NCBI GenBank assembly: GCA_964458565.1
Contig: CAYWJO010000037.1
Location: forward strand, 1-34,598
Direction: 5' to 3'
Source of the DNA: an uncultured archaeon
GTDB lineage: Archaea > Asgardarchaeota > Thorarchaeia > Thorarchaeales > Thorarchaeaceae
Length of the DNA stretch: 34,598 nt
Shown: piece after piece, positions 4,595 through 8,302 of the stretch
Layout: each line of letters starts with the position of its first letter
How positions within the stretch are numbered: position 1 is the stretch's first letter
The notes under the pieces: model-generated
The model's input: only the letters and a program-made list of their open reading frames with translations
The model's database searches: none
Told to the model about the DNA's origin: nothing
Translations under genes and position numbers: made by a program

Positions 4595-6571
4595 TCAACT
4601 AGTCCTGTTTTTTATAATTAAAATGCTAAAAACCACAATGACCGCAAGTGAGCCTAGAGTTACTGCAAACCCAAGATAGGTTGCTAATTGGGTCCATTGG
4701 TCTGTTGTAAGAGTGTTCTCAGTTGAAGGTAAGGAACTGGCTATGGATGTTTCACTGATTGAAATTGTGTGGGTGGTTGTGAATTCCATCGTAGTGAAGG
4801 TTTCAGAAGTGAATGTGGAACATATACTGCCGCAGCAGGGGAAACATGGCCATTTTTCCTCACGCTCAATCATAAAGAAATAATCCGGATAAAATGTAAG
4901 TTCTATATATTCACCCGCCACATAATCTGTTATGTTGAAAGGTCCGGAAGTGACCATTTCTTCGGATACGGGCTGAGGATTCCAAGTATTCCAATTCTCA
5001 ATTCCAATGTCTAGAAATACGTGTTTTGGAATTATGGGTTTGTAGGCAACTGAATTTAAATGCCAAAATGACTCAGAATCGAATTCTACTATTATACGAA
5101 ACTGTGTTGGAGCATAAGCTGAAACCATCTCTGACAAACTAGCTCCATATGGATTGCCAGGTGCATCTCTATAATAATTCAATGAGTATGCAATATCCGC
5201 TCCTGTAAGTGGTGTACCATCCGTCCAGGTTGCGTTGTCGATGATATCAAAAGTGAAGCGAGTATGACCAATTGGAACAGAGGGATTATCCAAATGAGTC
5301 TCGGCAATGTAATTCGTTGCTAACCACAACATATCATTCCCTTGAGAATCAGTCCTCATTAGACTATCATAGAGCATTTGAAGGGAATTCATTGTATACG
5401 CAGACTGCGAAGTCATGAAATTGAAAGATTCTAAATCTAGACCATTGCTCCAACGGAATTCACCCCCCCAAGGAGCACCAGGTTCACTTGGCATGAGGTG
5501 CACCTTATAGTTTGTCCACCAACATGGTATTCCACGTGAATAATCACTCACGAATCCGGTAAATTTGTCAGTGCGATACGCGGAGAAAATACTATTCTCG
5601 TAACAGATAATCGCTGGCGATGAATGTACCCAGATCTCCTGCATGGCGTATGATGCATCTAAGACATCCTCATAACTGGTTGCATGAAGCAATTGGTCAA
5701 TCCAACCATCGAAACTTGCATTGCTCCAATTTGGCAAATTAATGTAAACTTCATCAACATAATTTGTACCGTATTCACGAGCAATCCATGTGATATCAAA
5801 CGTTTCGAAGGTTGTTCCCAGAAACGCCATGTCATAGTCTCCATGGAAATACAACCGCTGAAGAATATCACTACAGAAACAAAGATTCTCAAGAGTTATA
5901 TTCAATCCAATCCCAGTCATATCTGACACAAACTGATCACAAACCAAAATAGCAATATTTGATGATAGTGCAGGTTCCAAGAGTATTGACAGATCTGACC
6001 CATCAGGGCATTCTCGAAAACCATCCTCATCGATATCAGTGAATCCTGCGATATCCAACAGGTGATTGGCATAATCATAATTTGCATCGTAATAGTCGTA
6101 ATCAAGTTGGCCTTCAATTGAGTAGGGATTTGTCTTTGGTAATAACGAATCCTGAGGTTCAGAATAATCTTGCCATATCGTTTCACTCACATGTATCTTA
6201 TCGAATGCGAAAGCACAAGCTCTCCTGAATTCTGTAATGTTAAAGGGATATTTTGCACAATTGATTAGTATATAGCCATAGCCATTACGTGGGATGCTAT
6301 CTACTTGGATATATTCTGCTGATTCTAGAATTGGTAGATACATTGGGTCAAACATATCTCCAATCAGGTCAATTTCATTATTTTGTAATGCAAGAACTTG
6401 TTGGTCGTCACCTACTATGACTTTGTAGACGAGCTTATCAACGTAAGGCCCGTTTTTTGGGCCTGCAGGAACTATGAACTGTGCATTTACTTGTGTTGGG
6501 AAATATGAGTAACAGATAAGCAATGCCACAGTCAATAAGACAACTCGTCTTTTCACACCAATCTCCTTCAT
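4595..6571 (-). CDS. ABC transporter family-5 substrate-binding protein with signal peptide, Ser/Thr linker and C-terminal TM anchor
   Basis: Motifs PFNITEFRRACAFAFDK, ANHLLDIAGF, LYDSLMRTD, WTDGTPLTGADIAYS, TSGPF; hydrophobic N- and C-termini. Confidence 0.9.
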   Translation of the reverse strand: MKEIGVKRRVVLLTVALLICYSYFPTQVNAQFIVPAGPKNGPYVDKLVYKVIVGDDQQVLALQNNEIDLIGDMFDPMYLPILESAEYIQVDSIPRNGYGYILINCAKYPFNITEFRRACAFAFDKIHVSETIWQDYSEPQDSLLPKTNPYSIEGQLDYDYYDANYDYANHLLDIAGFTDIDEDGFRECPDGSDLSILLEPALSSNIAILVCDQFVSDMTGIGLNITLENLCFCSDILQRLYFHGDYDMAFLGTTFETFDITWIAREYGTNYVDEVYINLPNWSNASFDGWIDQLLHATSYEDVLDASYAMQEIWVHSSPAIICYENSIFSAYRTDKFTGFVSDYSRGIPCWWTNYKVHLMPSEPGAPWGGEFRWSNGLDLESFNFMTSQSAYTMNSLQMLYDSLMRTDSQGNDMLWLATNYIAETHLDNPSVPIGHTRFTFDIIDNATWTDGTPLTGADIAYSLNYYRDAPGNPYGASLSEMVSAYAPTQFRIIVEFDSESFWHLNSVAYKPIIPKHVFLDIGIENWNTWNPQPVSEEMVTSGPFNITDYVAGEYIELTFYPDYFFMIEREEKWPCFPCCGSICSTFTSETFTTMEFTTTHTISISETSIASSLPSTENTLTTDQWTQLATYLGFAVTLGSLAVIVVFSILIIKNRTS

Positions 6572-6631: not shown

Positions 6632-6702
6632 AAGATAGGGCTTTCGCATCTTGTTTCTGAGAGGGAGTGAAGGAACTCTCCCTCTCAGTTTTGATGCGAC
6701 AT
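6632..6702 (-). other. 3'-UTR stem-loop of the small ORF (possible terminator or stability element)
   Basis: Perfect 11-bp stem 6657-6667/6678-6688 nested in a 7-bp stem 6644-6650/6693-6699. It starts a few nt after the stop codon (6707-6709) and is followed on the minus strand by a pyrimidine run (CTTCTTCTTCTTT). Confidence 0.75.
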
Positions 6703-6706
6703 ATTT

Positions 6707-6907
6707 TTACCGATAGTATGTACTTCTTGTTTCAATAAGCGCCCTATCTTTTACTCGATTGAATTCTTTCTCAGCTTCATAACCTGCTTGTATGCATCGC
6801 TGATAGTGAGCGAGATCAACGTATGCTCGTTTCTTTCTTTCGCTTACGTAACTCTCAACTTGTGCAGCAACTCGTCCAATTATCGGTATTGATTTTAATT
6901 CCATCAT
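6707..6907 (-). CDS. Small hypothetical protein (66 aa; in-frame upstream ATG at 6961 would give 84 aa)
   Basis: GTGTGTGAT RBS-like motif precedes ATGATG at 6907. Product MMELKSIPIIGRVAAQVESYVSERKKRAYVDLAHYQRCIQAGYEAEKEFNRVKDRALIETRSTYYR looks helical and charged; the ORF is flanked by structured UTRs. Confidence 0.65.
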   Translation of the reverse strand: MMELKSIPIIGRVAAQVESYVSERKKRAYVDLAHYQRCIQAGYEAEKEFNRVKDRALIETRSTYYR

Positions 6908-6923
6908 TTTTATCACACACTTT

Positions 6924-6998
6924 TTTTGAACAAAAGAGAGTAACCAAAGAATGGCAATCATGTCGCATCTGCTATTCGAGTTACCTCTTTTATCAAAA
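6924..6998 (-). promoter_or_regulatory. Long 5'-leader hairpin upstream of the small ORF
   Basis: Minus strand: TTTTGA-T-AAAAGAG-GTAAC-TC-GAAT-A-GCA-[GATGCGACATGAT]-TGC-C-ATTC-TTTG-GTTAC-T-CTCTTTT-GT-TCAAAA, about 25 bp of interrupted stem. Confidence 0.7.
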
Positions 6999-7216
6999 TG
7001 TAAGAATTAACGGCAACTATATCACATCAGTATGCCATTGTTTTTACACAATGAAAATTATGGCAAGTATATATATAAATGTTATTGCCTACGCTGTTAT
7101 TGCTTTGAGGTTGCCATAGAAATAACTAATTGCAAAAAGCGGTAGTATTATATTTAAGTACCATTGCCAATATTTATTATAGTTTAAAAGTTAATAAATC
7201 ATGAGTTGAAGGTAAC

Positions 7217-8302
7217 TTGTTGCTGAAAATAGAATTGGATGACATAGATAAACAAATCTTGAAGGCTATGGAAGAAAATGGTGGAGATCTTTCTACTCGT
7301 GATATCAGCGAGAAATTAAAGGTACCTGCGAGAACAATCCGTTACAGAATCAATAGAATGAGGGAAAATAAATTACTCCTTAAACCATCCATCCAGACCT
7401 ATGAAAGAAAACTCGGAATGGGAGAGAGCCTTCTCTTGCTGCAAAGTTATCCGGATAAGGAAGAGCTTCTCTCAAAGATATTGAATGAATTCTCAATATT
7501 CTATTACTTCGCACCCACCTACGGACGTTTTGAGGGATTCATGGTTTATACGATGTATCCACTTGTTACTCCTCAGATCATCTCCCAAGTTGCTGACGAA
7601 TTGAAAGCACTTGAAATTGTTAGAGATTATTTCATCTTTGACCTTGTTGACTATACACGGCAGGAAGTTAAGATTTCTGCATTCTTTAGTCCAGACTCAT
7701 GGAGCTGGGACGATTGGTCAAATCAGGCTGAAGGTGTGATGGAGAAGGGGTGCAAGCTTCAACTTAACCTTGAAGAATTTCCGTCACAAGTTCCTTTTGA
7801 CTTTGAGGATGTCAAGATCATAAAATATATGGTAGAGAACACAGAAGCCACATTGAAAGAAGTAGCAGACACAACTTCCCTATCACTCACTCAGGTACAT
7901 AAAAGAGTCAAGAGATTGGAGGATACGGGAATAATGAGAGGATGCGGAAAGTGTATGAGCCCATTCGAGGAGTATATGGGCATCACCGTTTTCTTTAACT
8001 CTCGTGAAAAAGCCGAGAATATTCTTTGTGCATTTTCGAAATTTCCGTTTCAAATGACATTCTCCTTGGAAAGCAGTACTCACTATATGGTAACTGTAGG
8101 TCTTCCTGCCAGTGAAGTCAATCAATTTCTACAAAGAACCCGTTTTCTAAAGAAGTACACAAATGAGTTCTTCGTCCAAGTTATGCTTGAAGGTACGAGT
8201 AAGGGGTATGTTCATCTTCTTGAAGCATACAATAAGAAAACTGAAAGCTGGGAGTTACCTCAGACAAAGACTCTTGAAAGAATAAGAACGATGGCAAAAT
8301 AG
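7217..8302 (+). CDS. Lrp/AsnC-family transcriptional regulator with two tandem wHTH + effector-domain modules
   Basis: HTH1 LDDIDKQILKAM...STRDISEKLKVPARTIRYRINRMRE; HTH2 FDFEDVKIIKYM...TLKEVADTTSLSLTQVHKRVKRLEDTG. Confidence 0.85.
   Translation: MLLKIELDDIDKQILKAMEENGGDLSTRDISEKLKVPARTIRYRINRMRENKLLLKPSIQTYERKLGMGESLLLLQSYPDKEELLSKILNEFSIFYYFAPTYGRFEGFMVYTMYPLVTPQIISQVADELKALEIVRDYFIFDLVDYTRQEVKISAFFSPDSWSWDDWSNQAEGVMEKGCKLQLNLEEFPSQVPFDFEDVKIIKYMVENTEATLKEVADTTSLSLTQVHKRVKRLEDTGIMRGCGKCMSPFEEYMGITVFFNSREKAENILCAFSKFPFQMTFSLESSTHYMVTVGLPASEVNQFLQRTRFLKKYTNEFFVQVMLEGTSKGYVHLLEAYNKKTESWELPQTKTLERIRTMAK

Follow-up and report, generated by a model that had tools for sequence, protein, structure and literature searches.

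A predicted, partly conserved pairing between the two ends of a small-protein mRNA in Thorarchaeota

In the 34,598-nt contig of an uncultured Thorarchaeaceae archaeon analyzed here (CAYWJO010000037.1, called the window), we found that the leader of a minus-strand mRNA for a 66-aa protein can pair with the 3′ UTR of the same mRNA, and that this pairing is kept and extended in a homologous locus whose leader is 58% identical. We put the probability at about one-half that the pairing is a selected contact between the mRNA ends, clade specific and labile, that competes with conserved local hairpins in the mRNA of a regulator-linked small protein. What we show comprises sequences, how they are conserved, fold predictions, and the gene neighborhood; we infer that the contact would form in cells and have a regulatory effect. 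The features discussed below are listed in Table 1.

The earlier note on this DNA had reported that the 10-mer GATGCGACAT (6969-6960) is the exact complement of ATGTCGCATC (6702-6693), a segment following the stop codon of the small ORF. Direct reading of the minus strand confirms all of this and places the second 10-mer 4 nt past the TAA stop, and a repeat search of the window also returns the two as a pair of 10 nt with 100% complementarity. As a match within a single sequence, this is unremarkable. We counted 16 exact inverted 10-mers within 400 nt of each other in the whole window and 25 ± 7.6 in shuffled sequence, so a scan of 34.6 kb would meet such pairs by chance, while a 10-nt complement between a 150-nt leader and a 100-nt 3′ UTR is reached by 1% of dinucleotide shuffles. 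The match exceeds chance only because a homologous locus, L021, keeps both 10-mers. We rejected a reading of GATGCGACAT as a genome-wide motif, as it has 9 copies compared to about 7 expected.

Table 1. Features of the small-protein locus and its neighbors in the window
Feature	Position	Strand	Remarks
Solute-binding protein (SBP) gene, family 5	4595..6556	-	Downstream neighbor; Pfam SBP_bac_5, 9.4e-47
B and tail	6632..6650	-	GAUGCGA (6650-6644) closes the predicted local stem with A; GCCCUAUCUU at 6641-6632
3′ hairpin	6657..6688	-	11-bp perfect stem, CUGAGAGGGAG/CUCCCUCUCAG; from repeat search
A, (U)AUGUCGCAUC	6693..6703	-	Predicted to pair with A′ (long range) or B (local); identical in L021 and L015
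66-aa protein gene	6907-6707	-	TAA stop at 6709-6707 in the minus-strand reading; Thorarchaeota-specific family
AAGAUAGGGC, codons for K-D-R-A	6741..6750	-	5′ strand of the local 3′ domain's outer stem; predicted to pair with GCCCUAUCUU
Shine-Dalgarno (SD)-like GUGAU	6912..6916	-	Ends 4 nt 5′ of the AUG; outside helices A and B
Leader hairpin	6924..6998	-	20-bp stem with two 1-nt bulges; -23.9 kcal/mol, z = -3.0; presents A′ apically
GGCAA/TTGCC box array	6953..7089	.	GGCAA 7089-7085, TTGCC 7066-7062, GGCA 7036-7033, TTGCC 7016-7012, TTGCC 6957-6953
A′, GAUGCGACAU(G)	6959..6969	-	Leader partner in long-range helix A; holds the upstream AUG at 6968
Decayed B′ (AGGU, A, ACUCGAAU)	6974..6986	-	Aligned with GGGU-A-ACCUGCAU of L021
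TATA box TTTATATA of the small gene	7072..7079	-	Invariant in all close loci
Divergent tandem Lrp/AsnC-type regulator	7217..8302	+	Two HTH_AsnC modules, TTG start; Pfam, NCBIfam

The small-protein family and its divergent regulator

The 66-aa ORF is genuine. A search of 5.8 billion proteins, together with exhaustive HMMER and profile searches, found 26 small proteins, and the named matches are hypothetical proteins of Candidatus Thorarchaeota. The homologs that the earlier note proposed to collect thus form a real Thorarchaeota family, with a copy in 33 of 87 genomes searched from the order and up to three copies in some of them. In the family alignment, the proteins are 62 to 72 aa long and share conserved residues R37, A41, A45, E50, K53, and R61 and a C-terminal F/Y-x-R tail. 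The protein encoded in the window is hydrophilic and basic (GRAVY -0.64, pI 9.4, 33% charged residues), its maximum Kyte-Doolittle value over 19 residues is 0.65, and it lacks a transmembrane segment. An AlphaFold2 model (pLDDT 76) has two long helices, residues 9 to 26 and 32 to 64, both of them amphipathic, and the product is accordingly modeled as a soluble two-helix protein. Neither Pfam nor NCBIfam gave a family match for it, Foldseek gave none in the PDB, and the ESM Atlas returned nothing; a PADLOC match to a TPR protein reached only 17 bits and was disregarded. We also rejected a repeat or mobile element as the explanation of the locus, as the 700-nt region is single copy in the genome. 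In one subfamily (L158, L166, and L171), the long leader holds a second open frame of ~40 to 48 codons, ~150 to 300 nt upstream of the family ORF, that ends in …VRTEVYRTSF-x-R, the family's own tail; judged by its sequence, this frame looks like an upstream paralog.

On the other strand, the divergent gene has Pfam matches to PF13404 (1.5e-18) and PF13412 (6e-20), each over two stretches, residues 7 to 51 and about 198 to 241, and AsnC/LrpA/LysM-like matches in NCBIfam that fall below the cutoff. By these matches, it encodes a DNA-binding domain of the HTH_AsnC type. The earlier note had suggested that this tandem-Lrp regulator possibly controls the small gene, and the link is strong in the family: of 35 distinct loci, 28 have a homolog of the regulator upstream on the other strand, and conserved GGCAA/TTGCC boxes flank the TATA box. 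The divergent pair of tandem Lrp/AsnC and 66-aa protein genes spans 6707-8302 in the window and is seen at loci L006, L018, and L148 to L171. Both the small protein and the divergent module lack annotation. A prediction of a complex between the regulator and the small protein scored 0.00, in runs made without controls, and so speaks neither for nor against binding between the two.

The TATA box recurs across the family with the same flanking boxes. Since the usual archaeal spacing from TATA to start was applied to the box at 7079-7072, transcription is predicted most likely to start near 7049, giving a leader of ~142 nt; leaders in the family range from ~130 to 280 nt. The order GGCAA-TATA-TTGCC-GGCA-TTGCC and its spacing to the TATA box are shared by the family loci with a recognizable TATA box (about 20 of 37), and about 15 loci have a further TGCC box 35 to 55 nt 5′ of the start codon. 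We consider these boxes candidate operator sites, which the regulator may bind. A GUGAU or GUGA sequence lies 4 to 9 nt ahead of the start codon family-wide. Whatever the status of the RNA contact, these features define an unannotated, Thorarchaeota-wide module that combines a tandem Lrp/AsnC regulator, a long, structured, box-bearing leader, and a 66-aa helical protein.

The SBP gene is also the neighbor in L013, L017, and L005. Its start is likelier the GTG at 6556 than the ATG at 6571, with an SD sequence AAGGAG at 6568-6563, and the L013 homolog is called from the equivalent GTG. Upstream of this gene, a 24-nt block, AACACAACAATCTTTACATCAAAT (6608-6585, minus strand), is the same in the window and L013, is mostly kept in L021 and L015, and is better conserved than the adjoining coding sequence. 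This block could be the promoter of the SBP gene, an operator, or a 5′ UTR element.

Pairing of the mRNA ends in four close lineages

We found only four independent close lineages to compare, represented by the window and by loci L021, L015, and L013. L014 and L174 are identical or nearly so to the window, as is L175 to L021, so L174 and L175 add no new lineages. Protein identity to the window is 65% for L021, 67% for the lineage of L015, L016, and L017, and 65% for L013, and the L015 protein is 90% identical to that of L021. A search of the genome and metagenome contigs with a two-sequence alignment found no related loci. A DNA pattern for the hairpin, which was too loose, returned 120 unrelated hairpins from metagenome contigs, none of them at a locus encoding the family.

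The L021 leader reads GGGTAACCTGCATGAAAGATGCGACATC, with the same A′ block, and forms 11 bp with GATGTCGCATC after the stop codon (helix A). Five bases upstream of A′, L021 also has ACCTGCAT, the complement of ATGCAGGT, which comes after the 3′ hairpin. This second helix, helix B, has 8 bp and a 4-bp extension (GGGU/GCCC). The segments are ordered B′-A′ in the leader and A-hairpin-B in the 3′ UTR, as required by antiparallel pairing, and adding helix B to helix A makes a junction whose third arm is the 3′ hairpin. The minimum free energy (MFE) structure of the full-length L021 RNA has both helices, with pair probabilities of 0.93 to 0.99, and forcing the local A-B stem costs +9.2 kcal/mol.

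In L015, helix B is kept, A′ is lost, and A is unchanged. The extension of helix B is GAGC/GCUC in L015 and GGGU/GCCC in L021, so that one G-C pair is replaced, in compensation, by A-U and one U.G pair by C-G. As L015 keeps A exactly without A′, the conservation of A does not need A′. Neither helix A nor helix B was found in L013. This locus lacks the A and B flanks and has instead an 8-bp hairpin, ACCUGCAU/AUGCAGGU, around the stop codon (L013:1050-1082; pair probability 0.99); the pair of 8-mers in this hairpin is that of helix B in L021 and L015, placed elsewhere.

In the window, helix A is intact, with 10 Watson-Crick pairs and one G.U pair, the latter at a position where L021 has C-G. Helix B is degraded there, with 5 of the 8 core positions and 3 of the 4 extension positions still able to pair with 6649-6638. 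Two pairs of this helix differ from L021 on both sides, having gone from CU/AG in L021 to UC/GA in the window. Contiguous complementarity of at least about 10 bp linking the 5′ UTR with the 3′ UTR is therefore present in three of the four lineages (10 Watson-Crick pairs plus one G.U in the window, 11 and 12 bp in L021, and 12 bp in L015) and absent in L013, and four sequences are too few for a proper covariation test. Compared to shuffles, the leader/3′ UTR complement was 10 nt in the window (p 0.01) and 11 nt in L021 (0 of 150), and the L015 duplex had a p of 0.01; in about 30 other loci of the wider family, the complement was at chance. Conservation of the pairing in homologous loci was the test that the earlier note had set for its proposal, and the result is divided: L021 keeps and extends the pairing, but L013 lacks it, L015 has lost half of it, and the wider family offers nothing above chance.

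The leaders of the window and L021 are 58% identical, the same as at third codon positions, and AGATGCGACAT is the longest identical run between them; the two 3′ UTRs have ATGTCGCATCAA in common. The chance that both 10-mers would be kept under neutrality is roughly 0.58^10 x 0.74^10, so their neutral retention in the window and L021 appears unlikely from the sequences. When we scored a structure made up of helix A, helix B with its extension, and an outer stem across the lineages, it paired in 78% of cells compared to 37 to 47% for slid partners, and it showed two-sided changes at 8 pairs compared to 0 to 4 in the slid controls; the slid control is biased because the structure was taken from L021, and with only four sequences entered, this result is indicative only.

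Competing local folds and upstream AUGs

The earlier note had placed GATGCGACAT in the apical loop of the leader hairpin (6924-6998), and folding likewise puts it at the top of this hairpin. The centroid structure shows AUGCGACAUGA as an apical loop of 11 nt, and in the MFE structure, AUG and CAU pair as a weak mini-stem of 3 bp. For L021, L015, and L013, too, a leader hairpin is predicted at the aligned position, with differing sequences. RNAalifold gave a weak consensus of -4 kcal/mol for the sequence-aligned leaders, and these hairpins are conserved by position and poorly aligned by sequence.

At the other end, each of the four close loci keeps a 9-bp core of the 3′ hairpin, within which two G-C pairs have changed to G.U, and the fold of the whole 3′ domain has a predicted energy of -30.6 kcal/mol (z = -5.1). 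By these predictions, the mRNA has a stable, G+C-rich hairpin of the intrinsic-terminator-like kind after its stop codon. Most family loci, including L013, L021, and L015, end in a hairpin followed by a T5 to T7 tract; in the window, a run of five or more T residues is absent near the 3′ hairpin, where there is only CTTCTTCTTCTTT. The local stem UCGCAUC/GAUGCGA closes the 3′ hairpin with pair probabilities of 0.77 to 1.0, in agreement with the earlier note's view of GAUGCGA as a competing local partner for the segment after the stop, and this A-B stem is kept at 5 bp in L021 and L015. We also observed that the pyrimidine-rich tail GCCCUAUCUU and AAGAUAGGGC can form a duplex that encloses the final 14 codons of the ORF together with its stop codon and the hairpin (6632-6750). 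In the window, L021, and L015 alike, the duplex between ORF and tail is stronger than with shuffled tails (p 0.007 to 0.04).

For the window RNA, nested folding prefers the local folds; the leader stem has to be opened for A′/A to form, and enforcing this helix therefore costs +8.5 kcal/mol. In a pseudoknot-type calculation (RNAup-style accessibility plus duplex), in which the leader stem stays in place and its loop pairs with A, opening costs +11.1 kcal/mol and the duplex yields -15.6 kcal/mol, for a net -4.5 kcal/mol before any steric penalty. Taking the nested and pseudoknot-type values together, the local and long-range states of the window RNA plausibly lie within a few kcal/mol of each other in these models. 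Nested folding of L015 prefers the local folds by 6.9 kcal/mol. The antisense strand folds comparably to the sense strand (z = -4.7 and -4.1, respectively), so folding energy does not discriminate between the strands. In Rfam 15, we found no family match for this RNA, the only hit being mir-1473 at 20 bits (E = 0.96), for which the gathering score is 95.

The minus strand has an in-frame ATG at 6961, within A′, and the earlier note had pointed out that it would add a hydrophobic extension to the protein. The extension is present in the window, but it is not conserved in other loci: in-frame stop codons occur 2 to 12 codons upstream in seven other loci tested, and the upstream frame of L021, which is open, encodes a different, non-hydrophobic sequence. 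We therefore rejected an N-terminal extension from this AUG as window specific. A different AUG in A′, at 6968, is aligned in all four close loci and opens short uORFs of non-conserved sequence, with 37, 19, 12, and 21 codons in the window (6968-6855, minus strand), L021 (L021:113-172), L015 (L015:744-782), and L013 (L013:798-863), respectively. The uORF stop overlaps codons 2 and 3 of the main ORF in L021 and falls inside the SD sequence in L013. Judged by this layout, the frame could be a regulatory uORF or part of a termination-reinitiation arrangement.

Alternative readings and comparison with known systems

Of the readings that compete with a selected contact, one takes the complements for a neutral relic of an old inverted duplication or of chance that is now decaying, so that only the leader hairpin and the terminator-like 3′ domain matter. 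The distribution of the pairing is what speaks for a relic, as the complement is gone in L013, half lost in both L015 and the window, and absent from the rest of the family; the local folds, in turn, are shared by all four lineages, in three of which they make up the nested MFE, and inverted 10-mer pairs are common in the window. A decaying relic does not, however, sit well with two 10-mers that stay exact between lineages whose leaders are only 58% identical, with several two-sided changes that preserve pairing, or with L021, in which ~23 bp in two helices of the correct topology dominate the predicted ensemble. On this evidence, we regard a relic as somewhat unlikely. Decidedly less probable is a role at the level of DNA, with A′ and A as inverted, quasi-palindromic GATG-N3-CATC copies that flank the gene, which the tandem-Lrp regulator would use as operators or for looping or at which recombination would take place, and with RNA pairing as an incidental result. 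GATGCGACATC is self-complementary at 8 of its 11 positions, and two oppositely oriented copies would for that reason be complementary automatically; the region has other conserved DNA boxes, and the antisense strand folds equally well. But B′ and B are non-palindromic, and B lies a 45-nt hairpin away from A in the 3′ UTR, an arrangement natural for an RNA junction and strange for a DNA site. Read as DNA repeats, the helices would contain mismatches wherever they have G.U or U.G, and the motif is not enriched genome-wide. The copies also have the same orientation in all assemblies of each lineage, which is weak evidence against a DNA-level role because assemblies report the majority form.

The earlier note had likened the locus to hok and aapA, whose kind of fold-back toxin switch would mean a full-length RNA that is kept translationally inert by 5′-3′ pairing, becomes active by 3′ processing, and is countered by an antisense RNA antitoxin. 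Complementarity between 5′ and 3′ ends with a competing local partner is indeed what such a switch has, and the mechanism is established for aapA1 (PMC5416894). The analogy nonetheless fails for the protein (GRAVY -0.64), which is hydrophilic and basic and has no transmembrane segment, and for the SD sequence, which is not sequestered, as both it and the start codon lie outside the long-range helices. The family is moreover linked to a regulator and reaches three copies per genome, and the in-frame extension from the upstream AUG is not conserved. We consider a switch of this type highly improbable here. What stands of the conformational switch proposed in the earlier note is the pair of competing pairings and an estimate that puts the two conformers within a few kcal/mol of each other, whereas no link to a toxin-type switch was seen.

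For the selected contact that we favor, the proposed course of events is as follows. A transcript from the TATA box at 7079-7072 would carry the leader hairpin and a 3′ domain of three tiers, namely the ORF/tail stem, the A-B stem, and the 11-bp apical hairpin, similar to the ends of other family mRNAs, with their hairpin and oligo-T tract. Within the immediate clade, both flanks of the 3′ hairpin are complementary to the top of the leader hairpin, through A′/A after the stop codon and B′/B after the hairpin, and the mRNA ends could pair as a three-way junction at the cost of the local folds. Such a contact would probably make the stability or translation of the mRNA depend on the state of its 3′ end; a terminating ribosome that covers A is one example of how. 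A more specific version, in which terminating ribosomes or 3′-end trimming toggle a bistable clamp between a closed, end-paired state and an open, local state and so set the level of the small protein, is possible but tentative. If it were true, this would be the first sequence-defined, covariation-supported pairing between 5′ and 3′ UTRs in archaea; we know of no sequence-defined pairing of mRNA ends from this domain. A sequence-defined case in an Asgard archaeon would offer a concrete target, open to mutation, for the study of post-transcriptional control in those prokaryotes that are most closely related to eukaryotes.

The gene arrangement is like that of divergent Lrp/AsnC (feast/famine) systems in having a divergent HTH_AsnC regulator and repeated inverted boxes at the target promoter. 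Compared to the usual pairs, the regulator here is a tandem protein of two modules, and where those pairs have an exporter or a biosynthetic operon, its conserved partner is an uncharacterized helical protein of 66 aa. As an archaeal precedent in translational control, the abstract of a reporter study of Haloferax volcanii transcripts describes a need for both the 5′ and the 3′ UTR (Brenneis and Soppa 2009, PMC2636863). That abstract states no conserved base pairing, whereas the pairing at the present locus is predicted and partly conserved.

Pairing of mRNA ends has been described in a few bacterial cases, hok, aapA1 (PMC5416894, PMC6733600), and hbs (PMC5737220). With hok and aapA1, the present locus shares a small-ORF mRNA in which pairing of the ends stands against alternative local structures. 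In those two systems, the interaction sequesters the SD sequence, the encoded toxin is small and hydrophobic, and an antisense RNA and processing of the 3′ end also belong to the system (PMC5416894, PMC6733600); here, in contrast, the SD sequence is free and the protein is soluble and regulator linked. A′ (6969-6959) and B′ (6986-6974) lie ~40 to 65 nt upstream of GUGAU (6916-6912), which is outside the helices in the folds of both the window and L021. Given the free SD sequence, a protein unlike a toxin, and an upstream AUG found in the window only, the likeness to hok and aapA1 is one of RNA topology only. The hbs mRNA of Bacillus subtilis has a contact of 10 to 14 bp from a structured 5′ UTR to the 3′ UTR (Braun, Durand, and Condon 2017, PMC5737220), and it resembles the present case also in being an mRNA for a small protein of an abundant type, in a contact that lies off the Shine-Dalgarno site, and in a plausible role in RNA stability. 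It differs in being bacterial and in resting on RNase Y and RNase J1, whereas the host here is an Asgard archaeon and the contact is a predicted one. The predicted contact, unlike that of hbs, is bipartite around a 3′ hairpin, with a three-way junction in L021, and competes with conserved local hairpins. By these comparisons, the hbs contact is a closer analogue of the Thorarchaeota mRNA than hok or aapA1.
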